Source: Candidatus Lokiarchaeum ossiferum (lineage in GTDB: Archaea > Asgardarchaeota > Lokiarchaeia > Sigyniarchaeales > Promethearchaeaceae). Taken from it: a stretch of 32,000 bases of DNA. The notes under the pieces are model-generated. The model searched no databases. It saw nothing but the letters and a program-made list of their open reading frames with translations, and was not told the origin of the DNA. The stretch is from assembly GCA_025839675.1 (NCBI GenBank), contig CP104013.1, positions 4,230,001-4,262,000 on the forward strand, in the 5' to 3' direction. Positions 1-6,217 of the stretch are shown piece after piece (the stretch's first letter is position 1; each line of letters starts with the position of its first letter). A program made the position numbers and the translations under genes.

Positions 1-441
1 AGCATCATAAATAACTGCCACAGAAGTTGTTTCCGAACCTGTACCTGGAGTCGTAGGTATTGCAACTAGTTTTATGTGATTGTCGGTGATAAATTGATTT
101 GTTTTTAAATCTTCAAAGGACAATTCGGGATGAGACAATAAAATTCTTAGGATTTTTGCGGGATCTAGGGTTGAACCGCCTCCGATTGCCACAATTGCAT
201 CTAATTTCGTACTGGCATATTTTTCTCTAAGTTGAATGATTTGATCCTGATTGATTATATCAATAGATTCAATCAATGTTGTTTTTTCCTTTGTATATTT
301 CTCTACTTTTGCAAAATATTCTGATTCATGAACGGGGCGGGCAACCATAAGTAATAAATTGGTTGCTTCAATACTTTTTAAGCAAGCTATTGCTCCTTTC
401 TTATAATACACTTCGGGTGTATTTAAAATGCGTTTTACCAT
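1..441 (-). CDS. Iron-containing (group III) alcohol dehydrogenase family protein; N-terminal 147 aa only, 3' end runs off the window
   Basis: This ORF is not in the supplied track because it is open at the window edge. My minus-strand translation from the ATG at 441..439 reads MVKRILNTPEVYYKKGAI...LDAIVAIGGGSTLDPAKI...LVAIPTTPGTGSETTSVAVIYDA. GGGS-x2-D-x-AK and PTT-x-GTGSE are the Fe-ADH fingerprints. The gene starts 14 nt downstream of the ligase stop on the same strand. Confidence 0.8.
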   Translation of the reverse strand, partial: MVKRILNTPEVYYKKGAIACLKSIEATNLLLMVARPVHESEYFAKVEKYTKEKTTLIESIDIINQDQIIQLREKYASTKLDAIVAIGGGSTLDPAKILRILLSHPELSFEDLKTNQFITDNHIKLVAIPTTPGTGSETTSVAVIYDA

Positions 442-455
442 TAATTTTTTCTTTA

Positions 456-1976
456 TCATTCTGAAGATCCTCGGGTTTTTTTATCCATTTGTTTTAGTTT
501 GACTTTATCTAATTTATTTGAATTGTTTTTTGGTAAGCTAGGGAGAAACTCATATTCTTTGGGAATTTTATGATTCGGGAAGTGAGCCTTGCAATAAGTT
601 GTAATTTGATCTGCGTCGAGCTTCGTTTCGCCTTTTAAGGAAACATACGCTTTCATCGCTTCCCCCAAAATATCGTCTGGAATTCCGATGATCCCTACTT
701 CAACGACTTCATCAAGTTGGGCAATATAATCTTCCACTTCTTTAGGGCTAACACGGAAACCTCCCACTTTAAGAATATTCTTTTCTCGATCAGTTAGGAA
801 AATGAATCCTTCTTCATCAATCGTGCCTATGTCCCCTGTATATAACTTGCCATTTCTAAAGGATTTAGCGGTAGTTTCAGGATCTTGCCAATACCCTAAT
901 GTAATATTTTCTCCGGATGCAACTAATTCTCCAATTTCTCCAGGTTTGATCGGTTGTCCATTTTTATTAACTACCGAGAGAGTGGTGTTTGGGATACCCT
1001 TTCCAATTGAACCGAGTTTTTTATCCAATAAACTTGGAGGAAGATATGATAACCGGGCTGTAGCTTCTGTTTGTCCATACATAATAAATATTTCTGTGGT
1101 AGGTAGCGCCTGGCGTAATTCTTGAATAAAGGCATTGGCTAATTTTCCTCCCGCTTGTTGCGCAATGCGTAGGGTTGGAAATTTCATTTGTTTTAATGCC
1201 GATCGCCTTAGTAAAATTTGATAGGTACTCGGAACTCCTGCAAATACGGTACACTCTTTTTGATTAATTTCCTTCAGCACTTTTCCGGGGAACATGAAAT
1301 GGTTATTCAATACCACCGATCCACCTACTCTCAAATGGGTGTGTAGCAATGATGTGCCAAAACAATAGGAAAAGGGAAGAACTGCCATTACCCGATCGGA
1401 TTCTTGTAATCCTAAGTATTCAATAATAGAATTCGAATTTACCATGATATTTTGGTGGGTTTGCATAACCCCCTTCGGTGTGCCGGTAGATCCGGATGTA
1501 AAAATAAGGATCGCAAGCCGCTGTTTTGGATTATTTATCGGGTATATTGTTCCTTCTGTGGTAGTTAGAGTGAAAATATTTTCATATCCTTCCACATCTT
1601 GATCAGTTAAAATGAGTTCTAAGGGAAGATTGAATTTGGCAAGTTTTTTGATATATTTCTTTTGCAAGAAGAAACATTTAATATTACAGCTTTCAATGAC
1701 GTATTTAAAATTACTTTCTCCAAATTGATGATGGATCGGAACGGCAACCCGCCCACTTCCTATGATTGCAAGATATGAAATAATGAAGAAAGGTGAGTTG
1801 TCCGCCACAATCATTATTTTTGCTTCAGGTTCTAAGGATAAATTATCTATTTTGGAGATCAATTTTAGTACATGTGAATTTAATTCAGAAAAGGATAGGG
1901 TGTTTTCACCCTGAAAAATAGCCGTTTTTGTTTCTAACCGTTGTGCTTGTTCTAATATGTAGTGTGTGAGGTTCAT
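456..1976 (-). CDS. AMP-dependent synthetase/ligase (adenylate-forming enzyme, probable acyl- or aminoacyl-carrier-protein ligase)
   Basis: The 506-aa ORF carries the adenylation core motifs IFTSGSTGTPKGVM, YGQTEA, YTGDIG, DREKNILKVGGFRVSPKEVE and a C-terminal NKLDK lysine. Its ATG overlaps the stop of the upstream carrier-protein gene (ATGA at 1976..1973). Confidence 0.9.
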   Translation of the reverse strand: MNLTHYILEQAQRLETKTAIFQGENTLSFSELNSHVLKLISKIDNLSLEPEAKIMIVADNSPFFIISYLAIIGSGRVAVPIHHQFGESNFKYVIESCNIKCFFLQKKYIKKLAKFNLPLELILTDQDVEGYENIFTLTTTEGTIYPINNPKQRLAILIFTSGSTGTPKGVMQTHQNIMVNSNSIIEYLGLQESDRVMAVLPFSYCFGTSLLHTHLRVGGSVVLNNHFMFPGKVLKEINQKECTVFAGVPSTYQILLRRSALKQMKFPTLRIAQQAGGKLANAFIQELRQALPTTEIFIMYGQTEATARLSYLPPSLLDKKLGSIGKGIPNTTLSVVNKNGQPIKPGEIGELVASGENITLGYWQDPETTAKSFRNGKLYTGDIGTIDEEGFIFLTDREKNILKVGGFRVSPKEVEDYIAQLDEVVEVGIIGIPDDILGEAMKAYVSLKGETKLDADQITTYCKAHFPNHKIPKEYEFLPSLPKNNSNKLDKVKLKQMDKKTRGSSE

Positions 1977-2212
1977 ATTTCAATACCATGGTTTTTAAGA
2001 GCATCTTTAATCGCCCCAATGGAATCCATTTCGGTGATTTCTTCTACATCTAATTCTAAACCGAAGGTGTCTTCAAACCGTGCCATTAAATCCATATGGG
2101 ATACCGAGGTCCAACTTTCAATATCATCGGGGGTCGCATCATCCTCAATTTCGTCGCGGCTAATATTAAATACTTCCATTAGCATTGTGATTAAAACTTC
2201 CGCTTGACTCAT
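1973..2212 (-). CDS. Acyl carrier protein-like small acidic protein (phosphopantetheine-attachment type)
   Basis: Translated from ATG 2212, this is a 79-aa acidic protein (MSQAEVLITMLMEVFNISRDEIEDDATPDDIESWTSVSHMDLMARFEDTFGLELDVEEI...). The W-[DT]-S-x-x-H-x-x-L...E-x-x-FG pattern matches the carrier proteins found beside adenylating ligases in polysaccharide loci. The ORF track starts at a TTG at 2257, but 2213-2257 is very AT-rich and looks non-coding. The stop overlaps the ligase start. Confidence 0.65.
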   Translation of the reverse strand: MSQAEVLITMLMEVFNISRDEIEDDATPDDIESWTSVSHMDLMARFEDTFGLELDVEEITEMDSIGAIKDALKNHGIEI

Positions 2213-4570: not shown

Positions 4571-4594
4571 TTCTTAAAAAAAGATTTTTTATTG

Positions 4595-5959
4595 TTATTC
4601 TTGTTCATTTTGCTTTCTTTCAGCTATACTGATATAGCCAGGCTTCATTTTTTGTTTTTTTAAGGTTCTTTTAAAATATATTAAAGTCACCCCATACCAA
4701 ATTGCTAATATAATTAAACCAATCACTCCTCCAATTAACCAATTCACTAAATAGGTTATATCAAAAATAAATTGATTAATTATTATTAAGAATATTAAAG
4801 CAATACCCAATAAGGTTCCCATAACTACTGATAACATCAAAATTCTGCGATAACGACGAATAACAAAAATGTATCCAATTACACTAAGTATCCCTATTGT
4901 AGTGCAAACAATCCAATTTATCTCTTCTAATGGAATTAAGAATTGCGTGCTTATTAAAGCTAAGAACCCTGATACTAATGAAAGAGCCATGAAATGATTG
5001 ACAAGTTCCTTTTCGTTTAAAGCTCCTGTGACCACAATCAAACGTGGTAATGTTAAAGCAGCTCCAATTTCGTCAGATGCGTGGATTAACTCGTCCTTGT
5101 CGATCCAAATATCTTGAACTGAGACAGAGTGGCTTTCTCTGAATCCCTTTTCGGATGTAATCACATAAAAACTATTGAATACTTGCGGTAACATGACAAT
5201 GACCATTACAACTTCAATTGATCCCATAACTCCCACTGCTCCAATTGCGGCTCCAATTACTAATGTGCCTATATCTCCTGGAAATGCTTTTGCTGGATAT
5301 TTATTAAATAGGAAAAATGCGAAGACTGCAGCAAATGAAATAATCCCAAATAATAGCCCTTCCCCAGATTTTAAAATAATGGCTGCAATTACCATAACCA
5401 AAAGTGCGATGGATGTTGTTCCAGATCCTTCTCCATTATATCCTTCTAACATATTAACAGTATTTGTTAAAATCATGATTATGAAAGGAACCATCAGAGG
5501 ATAAATAATATTTAAGCGAAGTTGCCCCAATATCGGTAAGGTTGGGTTTTCGATGTCAACTTTCGTTAATAAATTCGCAATGAATAATGGTATTCCAGTA
5601 ATGAACATCAATACTATTTTTTTTAAAGAACCTAATTGATGACGATCATCATACCATCCGATTATCGCTGCAATAATAATTGTAATATCGAAAGTTAATA
5701 TCTCTGCCCAGAGTTTGGAGAAAAAAATGAATGCCAAAATTGATCCAATCAAAATTCCGATCGTTAAGCCTAATCCCCCAGATTCTGCAGTTGCTGGACG
5801 ACCGATTTTGTGTATATCATATCCCACATACCCTTTTTCTTTCAGCCATTTGATTAGTGGAGGGTAAATTAAATACGTGATGGTGAAGATAATGCCTCCA
5901 ATTAATGTAATCAGTAGATAATCAATCCATGTAAAACTTAAAGTGTCAAAAGTGTTCAT
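4595..5959 (-). CDS. Glycosyltransferase family 4 polyprenyl-phosphate sugar-1-phosphate transferase (MraY/WecA/AglH-like) with extra C-terminal TM segments
   Basis: This is a polytopic membrane protein. It has YDIHKIGRPATAESGGL, GWYDDRHQL, NTVNMLEGYNGEG and FPGDIGTLVIGAAIG, which match the conserved loops of the MraY/WecA family. I prefer the ATG at 5959, preceded by AGGTGA, over the GTG at 5971 used by the ORF track. Confidence 0.75.
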   Translation of the reverse strand: MNTFDTLSFTWIDYLLITLIGGIIFTITYLIYPPLIKWLKEKGYVGYDIHKIGRPATAESGGLGLTIGILIGSILAFIFFSKLWAEILTFDITIIIAAIIGWYDDRHQLGSLKKIVLMFITGIPLFIANLLTKVDIENPTLPILGQLRLNIIYPLMVPFIIMILTNTVNMLEGYNGEGSGTTSIALLVMVIAAIILKSGEGLLFGIISFAAVFAFFLFNKYPAKAFPGDIGTLVIGAAIGAVGVMGSIEVVMVIVMLPQVFNSFYVITSEKGFRESHSVSVQDIWIDKDELIHASDEIGAALTLPRLIVVTGALNEKELVNHFMALSLVSGFLALISTQFLIPLEEINWIVCTTIGILSVIGYIFVIRRYRRILMLSVVMGTLLGIALIFLIIINQFIFDITYLVNWLIGGVIGLIILAIWYGVTLIYFKRTLKKQKMKPGYISIAERKQNEQE

Positions 5960-6217
5960 TACATATCTCACCTAACTACTTTTAACATACCCTTCCCCCT
6001 TAAAAATCTGTTTGGCACAAAAGGTACCCCACTCTATACTATCCCTATACAATGTCTAAATTATAGATTTACCTCGAAGCCACGTCATAAATGATTCTTT
6101 CTTTTATCAAATTACACAATTCCTCATTTTCATATCCATTTTGAGTTTGATCTTGAAATTGTTTTTATTAAAATCTTTTATAAGTGTTTCTTAGTGTTTG
6201 TAAGTAAGTAATTTTTT

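Follow-up and report, generated by a model that had tools for sequence, protein, structure and literature searches.

What would an archaeon make with a carrier-protein-dependent acyl pathway, and on which molecule would the product end up? The question is raised by a compact set of genes at the left end of a 32,000-nucleotide stretch of the Candidatus Lokiarchaeum ossiferum genome, hereafter the window. The answer favored here, to which we give an about even chance as a whole, is a self-contained carrier-protein-dependent acyl-tailoring module within a small 'first sugar' locus. Judging from its sequences, the cassette probably builds a small hydroxy-acid that is attached to the first sugar of protein-linked glycans. 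This would provide a cultured Asgard archaeon with a bacterial-style gene set for carrier-protein-dependent sugar acylation, of a kind already known from the cholera O1 antigen.

The expected Pfam family was found, above its gathering score, for all seven window ORFs at their respective coordinates. The original prediction described five co-oriented genes on the minus strand, and these ORFs were recovered together with their coordinates: a left-handed beta-helix protein, LbH (2719-3366; Hexapep, 82.8 bits), MaoC (2303-2713; MaoC_dehydratas, PF01575, 73.4 bits), the carrier protein, ACP (1973-2212; PP-binding, PF00550, 26.6 bits versus a cut-off of 20.8), an adenylate-forming ligase (456-1976; AMP-binding, 239.8 bits, and AMP-binding_C, 53.9 bits) and an iron-containing alcohol dehydrogenase, Fe-ADH (1-459 within the window; PF00465, 84.3 bits). 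LbH and MaoC are indeed 5 nt apart, and the ACP and ligase genes are joined by an ATGA overlap, as described. These five genes are real but incomplete as a cassette, which continues past the left edge of the window with LuxE (genome positions 4228277-4229398; 373 aa, PF04443, 176.6 bits) and LuxC (4226991-4228277; 428 aa, PF05893, 240.5 bits), both on the minus strand, for a total of seven genes. The LuxE gene overlaps the end of the Fe-ADH gene and is followed by the LuxC gene. The full Fe-ADH counts 360 aa (PF00465, 101.3 bits; ADH_Fe_C, 73 bits) and ends at genome position 4229377, the window coding for its N-terminal 153 codons. Its start had been placed at 441, after a 14-nt gap; from the 360-residue alignment with the Promethearchaeum syntrophicum protein, position 459 is the most likely start, where the ATG overlaps the stop codon of the ligase gene as ATGA.

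Next to the cassette are an Sfp-type phosphopantetheinyl transferase (PPTase) and an alpha/beta hydrolase. According to the ORF coordinates, a divergent intergenic region of 91 bp (3367-3457) separates LbH from DUF354 (3458-4570, plus strand; PF04007, 139.2 bits), which is followed by GT4 (4595-5971, minus strand; Glycos_transf_4, PF00953, 93.7 bits). The glycan-assembly locus announced by the original prediction is present but small, being made of DegT, LbH, DUF354 and GT4 only, and the remaining window genes are unrelated to it. No keto-sugar-forming oxidoreductase was found in the locus.

In Vibrio cholerae O1, the wbeK-wbeO genes (rfbK-O, VC0248-VC0252) are responsible for the 3-deoxy-L-glycero-tetronyl (2,4-dihydroxybutanoyl) N-acyl group of perosamine. 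Morona et al. reportedly proposed in 1995 a hexapeptide transferase as the last step of this tetronate pathway, an enzyme type that would then be present in both systems, and a DegT-type sugar aminotransferase pathway adjoins both. VC0249 (WbeL) is annotated as a ligase, VC0250 (WbeM) an Fe-ADH and VC0251 (WbeN) a LuxE/LuxC fusion (PMC3441752, PMC9915646), and a carrier protein adjoins VC0249-VC0251 (PMC12208996). On the basis of annotations and gene order, the ACP-ligase-FeADH-LuxE-LuxC series is collinear with VC0248-VC0251. The rfbK-O parallel of the original prediction holds and is stronger than it was stated: the gene order described in these three reports is the same. The two systems nevertheless differ in several respects. 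LuxE and LuxC are separate genes in Lokiarchaeum and fused in V. cholerae; the archaeal set adds the MaoC hydratase, a dedicated Sfp-type PPTase and alpha/beta hydrolases; and its host is an archaeon with a DPAGT1-type dolichyl phosphate transferase instead of an O-antigen polymerisation system.

The 79-aa ORF taken for a carrier protein bears the expected conserved serine, at position 36 within W-T-S-V-S-H, and is the sole PP-binding match in a profile search of the 6.03-Mb genome. Residues W34, S36 and H39 are invariant across 11 orthologues (W-x-S-x-x-H), and the best solved relative is 2lml, a 'putative acyl carrier protein' in which WDSLSH is aligned. A TTG at 2257 would offer a longer reading (94 aa); the 11 orthologues, of 79-83 aa, favor the ATG at 2212. 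A PPTase had also been expected somewhere in the genome; the sole ACPS match lies about 6 kb from the ACP gene. Its motifs (SISHS, GIDxE and WxxKE(S/A)xLK) are those of the Sfp type, and a profile built from its orthologues matches Sfp at E 4.7e-5. Among NCBIfam models, the ligase (506 aa) scores best against that of the exosortase-A-associated ligase (TIGR03098; 364 bits, under the cut-off of the model), and it shares 72% identity with its P. syntrophicum orthologue and 49% with the one of Clostridium. MaoC (136 aa) is of the (R)-specific enoyl-thioester hydratase/dehydratase type, and its sequence FMNLSGDRNPIHHDIEFA fits the hydratase-2 motif. Cys261 of LuxC, the catalytic one, is kept in DQAACTSPH, as is the C-terminal Cys362 of LuxE in RGCGD, and matching cysteines are described for the lux enzymes (PMC9157457); LuxE and LuxC score far under the lux equivalog cut-offs (69 versus 550 bits and 105 versus 750 bits).

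The gene content of the pathway is what was directly observed, and each of the following steps is deduced from it. The neighboring PPTase would turn the carrier protein into its holo form at Ser36. The AMP-ligase, proposed as the candidate loader, would then attach a short acid to it through one carboxyl; a C4 di-acid is the most likely substrate, and a di-acid would fit a cassette that has two enzymes for activating carboxyl groups. MaoC would hydrate a carrier-bound enoyl intermediate. Since LuxE and LuxC belong to the cassette, reduction of a carboxyl group becomes possible: the second, free carboxyl would be adenylated by LuxE and handed via its C-terminal cysteine to LuxC, which would reduce it to an aldehyde, and Fe-ADH would convert the aldehyde into an alcohol. 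The carrier would end up with a short hydroxy-acyl group of the dihydroxybutanoyl type in thioester linkage, according to the logic proposed for the V. cholerae O1 tetronate. The acceptor would be an amino sugar derived from UDP-HexNAc with the help of DegT, the aminotransferase encoded nearby; its free amino group would most likely be acylated by the co-operonic LbH, which resembles QdtC and WlbB, and the adjacent DPAGT1-type transferase would load the acylated sugar on dolichyl phosphate as the N-glycan linking sugar. A carrier-loaded acyl group, tailored and then moved to a lipid-linked amino sugar, was already part of the original prediction; the ACP, the PPTase and the glycan contexts speak for it, but LuxE and LuxC were missing from it, and the role given to LbH is to be read as putative.

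Enzymes of the LpxD type take the acyl group of acyl-ACP and place it on the nitrogen of a UDP-amino sugar; to our knowledge, LpxD and LpxA offer the only well-studied example of an LbH enzyme using ACP as the donor of a hydroxy-acyl group for such a sugar. In other archaeal cassettes, those of an Aenigmatarchaeote and of Asgard family f31, the gene after LuxC codes for a true LpxD-family protein (E 1.7e-32 to LpxD). The window LbH, with 215 aa, is instead short and devoid of the LpxD N-terminal domain; it is of the type that N-acylates nucleotide sugars and matches the NeuD/PglB/VioB family (91 bits), and its best solved relatives are amino-sugar N-acetyltransferases: QdtC (E 6.7e-17), FdtD/WxcM-like proteins and WlbB, of which QdtC and WlbB use acetyl-CoA. 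A cassette-less relative with a closed genome has a 61%-identical LbH next to the same DUF354, GT4 and DegT. As this relative keeps the four genes, the cassette is an accessory insert in a DegT/LbH/DUF354/GT4 backbone, and for the same reason LbH may be an ordinary acetyl-CoA enzyme. It is thus conceivable, even if unlikely, that the cassette makes an acyl-carrier thioester for glycans while LbH remains the N-acetyltransferase of the backbone. Another enzyme, such as either of the two alpha/beta-fold hydrolases/acyltransferases by the PPTase, would then deliver the acyl group to a sugar hydroxyl or to some other molecule. LbH indeed tracks species relationships rather than cassette presence, no LpxD-like LbH was found in the L. 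ossiferum genome, and an alpha/beta hydrolase accompanies the PPTase and the cassette in G000, P. syntrophicum and family f31. These hydrolases, however, match generic esterase and lactonase models only; in three different and independent gene orders LbH is each time co-oriented and translationally packed with MaoC or ACP; and a hexapeptide transferase is, as mentioned above, reportedly the final enzyme of V. cholerae-type cassettes. LbH would use acyl-ACP as the putative transferase of the cassette.

A published glycan mass can be confronted with these proposals. The N-glycans of P. syntrophicum, which carries the same cassette, begin with an unidentified sugar of 304.127 Da (PMC11284389). 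By formula calculation, this mass corresponds to C12H20N2O7, that is HexNAcN plus a dihydroxybutanoyl group, or an N-acetyl, N-dihydroxybutanoyl diaminohexose. HexNAc plus threonine or homoserine has the same formula, and the authors themselves read a Thr- or Ser-modified HexNAc. HexNAc oxonium ions were recorded from glycans without HexNAc (PMC11284389), which favors at least one of the unknown sugars being an ester on HexNAc. Perosamine is an unlikely acceptor, since none of the P. syntrophicum glycans shows a mass that would match it. It would be rather improbable, on the whole, that the carrier is aminoacylated as in DltA/DltC, with aspartate loaded, its side-chain carboxyl reduced by LuxE, LuxC and Fe-ADH, and the resulting homoseryl-carrier used to form an ester or amide on HexNAc. 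A homoseryl or threonyl group (HexNAc + C4H7NO2) does give the exact formula, in line with the authors' reading and with the oxonium ions, and the nearest solved relatives of the ligase are mixed, comprising NRPS adenylation domains (TIGR01733 scores 210 bits) as well as feruloyl/fatty-acyl-CoA synthetases, MenE, and oxalyl- and malonyl-CoA synthetases. But acyl-CoA ligase models outscore the amino-acid adenylation models, such a scheme explains neither the sugar aminotransferase DegT nor an LbH that resembles N-acyltransferases, and no role remains for MaoC, which belongs to the cassette of every Asgard version examined bar two family-f4 contigs (G016 and G018).

LuxC orthologues occur in 12 of 400 Asgard genomes. 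Relatives of the cassette in other Asgards, in an Aenigmatarchaeote and in two metagenome contigs lie in sugar-nucleotide loci, where LuxC is often succeeded by an LpxD-family acyltransferase, and the closest representative clusters adjoin DegT, a UDP-sugar dehydrogenase, epimerases and glycosyltransferases; in another Asgard, an ACP-ligase-PPTase set is found within a NeuB cluster. The flagellin glycosylation islands of Aeromonas (group II) and Enterobacteriaceae likewise share ACP, AMP-dependent synthetase, LuxE and LuxC in a 'fatty-acid-synthesis-like' set whose product is unknown (PMC7874193, PMC4875605). They differ by a FabG-type SDR in place of Fe-ADH and by the lack of MaoC, and they act on O-glycans that are carried by flagellins and based on pseudaminic acid; the cassettes of the Aenigmatarchaeote and of the metagenome contigs are closer to this SDR form than that of Lokiarchaeum. 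Related cassettes thus sit mostly in sugar-nucleotide or glycan loci, with the exception of Clostridium, where the ACP-ligase-LuxE-LuxC core adjoins an HpaB/AbfD-like enzyme, a class I/II aminotransferase and PFOR. LuxE and LuxC constitute the fatty-acid reductase of luminous bacteria (PMC9157457), and the Lokiarchaeum homologues share its acyl-accepting cysteines; the module however lacks luxAB and is coupled to a ligase, a carrier, an alcohol dehydrogenase and a hexapeptide transferase of its own. It is distinctly improbable that the module is a Lux-like fatty-acid reductase whose free aldehyde or alcohol serves lipids or some other metabolite, and that it adjoins glycan genes by chance, with the mevalonate and prenyl-synthase operon as the neighbor that matters. 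The Clostridium context, a nearby alpha/beta-fold protein that could parallel LuxD, and a mevalonate-to-GGPP operon and cis-prenyltransferase 5-15 kb left of the cassette speak for this reading. Against it, the mevalonate adjacency is absent in other Asgard families, hexapeptide transferases and sugar-nucleotide genes recur next to the cassette, a free alcohol requires neither a second activating enzyme nor a carrier protein, and the cassette closest to it among those characterised is devoted to an O antigen.

GT4 (458 aa) finds its best solved relative in human DPAGT1 (E 1.6e-10), followed by MraY, and is a candidate polyprenyl-phosphate HexNAc-1-phosphate transferase of the DPAGT1/AglH/MraY family, hence a candidate initiating enzyme. 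The DegT aminotransferase scores alike against perosamine synthetase, scyllo-inositol transaminase and QdtB, so that no regiochemistry is singled out. A UDP-sugar 2-epimerase-like GT-B fold is predicted for DUF354 (370 aa): its AlphaFold2 model (pLDDT 92.5) retrieves with Foldseek first 8sxw, a UDP-2,3-diacetamido-2,3-dideoxy-glucuronic acid 2-epimerase (E 1.4e-15, TM 0.69), and also WecB/MnaA/NeuC. DUF354 is single-copy in the Lokiarchaeum genome and was found in all five cassette-less relatives tested; a neighbor of the cassette here, it is widespread among Asgards.

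The genome of Candidatus Lokiarchaeum ossiferum is a single contig of 6,035,313 bp, of which the window covers positions 4230001-4262000, and the nearest closed relative found was Promethearchaeum syntrophicum MK-D1. The seven open reading frames named in the original prediction are present where it had placed them, and each scores above the Pfam gathering score for the expected family (Hexapep, MaoC_dehydratas, PP-binding, AMP-binding with AMP-binding_C, Fe-ADH, DUF354 and Glycos_transf_4). The gene arrangement is real and not the product of chance. Five of these genes had been proposed to form an acyl cassette; all five stand, and the cassette extends beyond the edge of the window. 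Reading 18 kb to the left of the window revealed, overlapping the gene of the iron-containing alcohol dehydrogenase (Fe-ADH), a LuxE-family acyl-protein synthetase (373 aa), followed by a LuxC-family reductase (428 aa). The cassette comprises seven co-oriented minus-strand genes in the order LbH-MaoC-ACP-ligase-FeADH-LuxE-LuxC, in which LbH (2719-3366) denotes a left-handed beta-helix acyltransferase of the hexapeptide type and ACP the carrier protein. The Fe-ADH start had also been misplaced. It lies at 459, where the ATG and the stop of the ligase gene overlap as ATGA, and is matched by the P. syntrophicum orthologue, whose alignment spans all 360 residues. The carrier gene starts at the ATG at 2212, and its orthologues are 79-83 aa long.

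Three genes are found tail-to-tail with that of LuxC. They encode an alpha/beta hydrolase, a 276-aa protein that matches ACPS at the borderline and a 247-aa protein without family. Further left, the genes are those of another alpha/beta hydrolase, of DegT (a sugar aminotransferase), of a mevalonate-to-GGPP operon and of a cis-prenyltransferase. To the right of the Glycos_transf_4 gene (GT4, 4595-5971, minus strand), the window holds only unrelated genes (sensors, transporters, peptidase), and the glycan locus is therefore compact, consisting of DegT, LbH, DUF354 (3458-4570, plus strand) and GT4. In the HMG-CoA synthase that heads the mevalonate operon (567 aa, minus strand, left-flank coordinates L002:8433-10136, genome 4220433-4222136), the Pfam matches stop near residue 421 and are followed by a C-terminal extension of about 145 residues without assignment.

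The original prediction had made its case depend on a PP-binding match in the small open reading frame and on a phosphopantetheinyl transferase (PPTase) in the genome, and both are present. The carrier is small, has the phosphopantetheine-attachment serine and reaches 26.6 bits with PF00550 (cut-off 20.8). Its residues W34, S36 and H39 are invariant in 11 orthologues, and its best solved relative is 2lml, an orphan "putative ACP" in which WDSLSH is aligned to the WTSVSH of the carrier. The whole genome yields one PP-binding match and one ACPS match, about 6 kb apart and both in the cassette locus. The ligase gene, directly downstream of the carrier gene and joined to it by an ATGA overlap, scores 239.8 bits with AMP-binding. 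The 276-aa protein matches PF01648 at 24.3-25.4 bits, around the cut-off of 25, and its motifs SISHS, GIDxE and WxxKE(S/A)xLK are common to five of five Asgard orthologues. It combines an ACPS-superfamily domain with the motifs G-x-D-x-E and W/F-x-x-K-E-S/A-x-x-K about 40-45 residues apart, as in a PPTase of the Sfp type. A profile built from the five orthologues matches Bacillus subtilis Sfp (1qr0, E 4.7e-5), and the orthologue of a more distant Asgard family (f31) passes both the ACPS and the AASDHPPT_N models.

The C-terminal Cys362 of LuxE, within RGCGD, is invariant in 8 sequences, and Cys261 of LuxC, within DQAACTSPH, in 4. These catalytic cysteines agree with the mechanism described for the enzymes of luminous bacteria (PMC9157457). 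Both proteins nevertheless differ from their lux-operon namesakes: with 69 bits against a cut-off of 550 for LuxE and 105 against 750 for LuxC, neither reaches the equivalog level of NCBIfam. No luciferase genes were found in the locus.

A closer parallel is provided by the O1 antigen genes of Vibrio cholerae, in which WbeO is presumably the hexapeptide transferase. Judged from published annotations, the WbeK-O set presents the carrier, ligase, Fe-ADH, LuxE and LuxC-type domains in the same order as the Lokiarchaeum cassette. The carrier protein RfbK adjoins the ligase (PMC12208996), the ligase WbeL (VC0249) is required for tetronate and for the O1 antigen (PMC3441752; described as a ligase in PMC12208996 as well) and WbeM (VC0250) is an iron-containing alcohol dehydrogenase (PMC9915646, Table 1). 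The composition given in the original prediction was right, its gene letters were slightly off, and the order proves to be shared too. LuxE::LuxC fusions of 800 aa with a V. cholerae-like architecture belong to the same family, at about 40% identity. MaoC, in contrast, is present in the Lokiarchaeum cassette and has no counterpart in V. cholerae O1; its sequence fits the hydratase-2 motif perfectly. To our knowledge, the reactions of such cassettes are still unsolved, that of the cholera O1 antigen included. The cassette contains two carboxyl-activating enzymes, and a di-acid substrate therefore fits. The ligase would put one end of this di-acid on the carrier, LuxE, LuxC and Fe-ADH would take the other end to the alcohol, and a hydroxyl could come from MaoC through hydration of an enoyl-carrier, such as the conversion of fumaryl to malyl. 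In its main line the original prediction is supported, namely a putative decoration of the V. cholerae O1 type, in which a carrier protein would serve to acylate an amino sugar of a glycan.

The candidate acyl transferase of this pathway is LbH. Its nearest solved relatives, QdtC, FdtD and WlbB, N-acetylate 3-amino sugars, and it could in principle be a plain acetyltransferase only. It is operonic with the cassette, however, and its packing with the cassette genes, kept in three arrangements, favours functional coupling: LbH and MaoC are separated by a 5-nt gap in Lokiarchaeum, they overlap by 4 nt in P. syntrophicum, though the rest of the cassette is 3 kb off, and LbH and ACP are 25 nt apart in another Asgard family (f4). 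The textbook case of an enzyme using acyl-ACP to N-acylate a UDP-amino sugar is LpxD. Members of its family are about 320-340 aa long, join an N-terminal uridine-binding domain to the LbH and resemble LpxD over their full length. The LbH of the window, with 215 aa and QdtC as best solved relative, lies outside this family, to which only the LbH proteins of other archaeal cassettes belong, and no LpxD-like protein was found in the Lokiarchaeum genome.

The closed genome of another member of the same family has neither LuxC nor a small ACP. In this closed cassette-less genome, DUF354, LbH (61% identical), GT4, the 247-aa protein, DegT and the mevalonate genes adjoin one another. This backbone is intact, and the ACP cassette is therefore an accessory insert in a conserved amino-sugar and initiating-transferase locus. 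DUF354 is widespread among Asgards; LbH is less so, and was not found in five incomplete same-family MAGs. The nearest solved relative of GT4 is human DPAGT1, and the relatives of DegT leave its regiochemistry indistinct. DUF354, which may also be a glycosyltransferase, belongs by Pfam to PF04007 only, outside the Epimerase_2 family. Its model (pLDDT 92.5) has a GT-B fold of two Rossmann domains. The same model is superimposable on epimerases of the WecB/WbpI type, and its best Foldseek match is the UDP-2,3-diacetamido-2,3-dideoxy-glucuronic acid 2-epimerase 8sxw (E 1.4e-15, TM 0.69), along with WecB, MnaA and NeuC. In the PDB, neither the sequence by itself nor a profile of five sequences gave a significant match, and the fold comparison alone was informative. 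A pseudaminic or legionaminic acid pathway made of DUF354, DegT and LbH can be dismissed, the NeuB and second DegT of the genome being encoded about 0.85 Mb away. These two genes, whose products are a NeuB-family synthase (317 bits) and a DegT aminotransferase, are separated by about 3.6 kb (genome 5074973-5080398) and probably represent the nonulosonic-acid pathway of Lokiarchaeum.

LuxC orthologues were detected in 12 of the 400 sampled Asgard genomes (3%), and none was found in a same-genus MAG that is 85% complete. Every cassette-bearing Asgard contig examined has ACP, ligase, Fe-ADH, LuxE and LuxC in one group, save that no carrier ORF was picked up in G094 and that Fe-ADH is apparently fused to LuxE in G189. 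MaoC belongs to the set in all of them but the two contigs of family f4 (genomes G016 and G018), and a PPTase and an alpha/beta hydrolase usually adjoin. In Asgard family f31 and in an Aenigmatarchaeote, LuxC is followed by an LbH of 314-325 aa (mutual identity 42%) that aligns with LpxD over its full length (E 1.7e-32); further on, the Aenigmatarchaeote locus encodes a UDP-sugar dehydrogenase, a UDP-GlcNAc 2-epimerase and glycosyltransferases. A JGI metagenome contig from the closest representative cluster carries GT1, PIG-L, AcpS, ACP, ligase::LuxE, LuxC, SDR and LbH. An ENA metagenome contig from the second closest cluster carries ACP, ligase, LuxE::LuxC, SDR and LbH together with epimerases, a nucleotidyltransferase, a UDP-sugar dehydrogenase and DegT. 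Bacterial flagellin glycosylation islands also hold ACP, ligase, LuxE and LuxC (PMC7874193, PMC4875605). G172 is an Asgard genome that lacks LuxC. A nonulosonic-acid cluster in it (L069:1-11000, corresponding to G172:C10:508001-519000) encloses ACP, a ligase (62% identical) and PPTase, which form a reduced version of the module in another glycan pathway. This cluster also includes NeuB, two CMP-transferases, a class III aminotransferase, GNATs and DegT.

Five Clostridium species likewise carry the ACP-ligase-LuxE-LuxC core. In C. carboxidivorans P7 (L029:5308-16077), the only annotated one, it is found beside an HpaB/AbfD-like enzyme, a class I/II aminotransferase and PFOR. The HpaB/AbfD family is that of 4-hydroxybutyryl-CoA dehydratase; this context is non-glycan, perhaps devoted to C4 acids, and may give a hint to the substrate class. 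The original prediction had named a consistent association of orthologous cassettes with non-glycan loci as the outcome that would speak against it, and Clostridium alone is of this kind. A closed relative genome without the small ACP cassette (G011) has one open frame of about 3819 aa (G011:C1:870777-875309), with five tandem PP-binding domains and a PPTase-like domain, that looks like a PUFA-synthase or PKS-type megasynthase.

The patchy distribution, the raised GC content and the bacterial character of the ACP/PPTase chemistry are consistent with an accessory island whose type is ultimately bacterial. At 37.6%, the GC content of the cassette is about 4 points above that of the genome (33.6%), which is only a weak hint. 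In trees of LuxC and of the ligase (18 sequences), Clostridium groups with the Aenigmatarchaeote and the Asgards form no single supported clade; the deep branches stay open and no donor can be named. Archaeal versions also occur in DPANN and Nitrososphaerota, among the 12 loci that one contig scan returned. Within the Asgards, LbH and DUF354 (2719-4570) are respectively 91% and 86% identical to their P. syntrophicum counterparts, against 43-59% for the flanking mevalonate genes, and DUF354 is only 69-70% identical to that of the same-genus MAG. These identities, above those of the flanking genes and of the same-genus MAG, suggest that this segment was exchanged between Asgard lineages. The PPTase (31%) and the hydrolase (51%) of the same block, whose identities are not elevated, argue against so simple a history as recent transfer of the entire island between the lineages of Lokiarchaeum and Promethearchaeum, and the case for such a transfer is therefore suggestive only.

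The possible product of the cassette can be approached through the glycans of P. syntrophicum. Nakagawa et al. reported three N-glycans in this organism, all starting with an unassigned linking sugar of 304.127 Da, tentatively read as HexNAc plus threonine, and further unassigned sugars of 311.08 and 303.10 Da (PMC11284389). The same glycan masses were recovered in an independent re-analysis (bioRxiv 10.64898/2026.04.15.718822). The formula C12H20N2O7, that of a 2-acetamido-x-amino-dideoxyhexose bearing a dihydroxybutanoyl group, matches the 304.127-Da sugar exactly, this being a match of elemental formula only. Dihydroxybutanoyl is the acyl group of the cholera O1 antigen. The linking sugar is what an enzyme of the DPAGT1 type installs, and a gene of this type, GT4, is found within the cassette locus. 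A HexNAc esterified with homoserine or threonine would be an isomer, and the reported HexNAc oxonium ions speak for an ester in one or more of the unassigned sugars (PMC11284389). The cassette proteins of P. syntrophicum and Lokiarchaeum are 60-81% identical, and their LbH 91%; the same product is therefore expected in Lokiarchaeum. The cassette could possibly make the linking sugar of P. syntrophicum, and the one predicted for L. ossiferum, as a 2-acetamido-x-(dihydroxybutanoyl)amino-dideoxyhexose and not as a threonine-modified HexNAc, a tentative assignment that we would expect to fail somewhat sooner than to hold. Nominally, the 303.10-Da terminal sugar agrees in mass with HexNAc plus succinyl (303.0954), a weak coincidence given the two published decimals; such a sugar would be in line with a chemistry of C4 di-acids.

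Almost all archaea are described as lacking ACP and the enzyme that activates it (bioRxiv 10.1101/2024.07.05.601840), and the presence of the two in Asgards is usually taken as a hint of bacterial-type fatty-acid lipids, in relation to the lipid divide. That the sole ACP and PPTase of a cultured Asgard belong to a putative glycan-decoration module calls for caution with this lipid reading. If true, the assignment would mean that ACP and PPTase have a defined physiological role in a domain from which both are said to be almost entirely absent, and would constitute the first ACP-dependent step in archaeal protein N-glycosylation. For the N-glycans of P. syntrophicum, the only ones yet measured in an Asgard, the locus offers a link from gene to structure that is concrete and testable. 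Both hosts are in culture and the raw mass spectrometry data are public (PXD051006), allowing a direct and cheap test by mass spectrometry. The soluble archaeal version, with its separate LuxE and LuxC, would be a convenient system for solving the chemistry of the cassette.

The 247-aa protein (L002:12459-13202, plus strand; genome 4224459-4225202), encoded about 4.8 kb left of the window, belongs to no Pfam family, and its true length is more likely about 222 aa. It is kept across Asgards, where its gene stays beside DegT and/or GT4 whether the cassette is present or absent. A trafficking-type domain adjoining a dolichol-phosphate initiating transferase is an association for which we have no explanation at hand. 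The model of this protein (pLDDT 84) combines a longin/roadblock-like N-terminal domain with a helical C-terminal half, which rules out an oxidoreductase, and its Foldseek matches are AP sigma subunits, zeta-COP, Sec22b and MglB (E 3e-4 to 1e-2).
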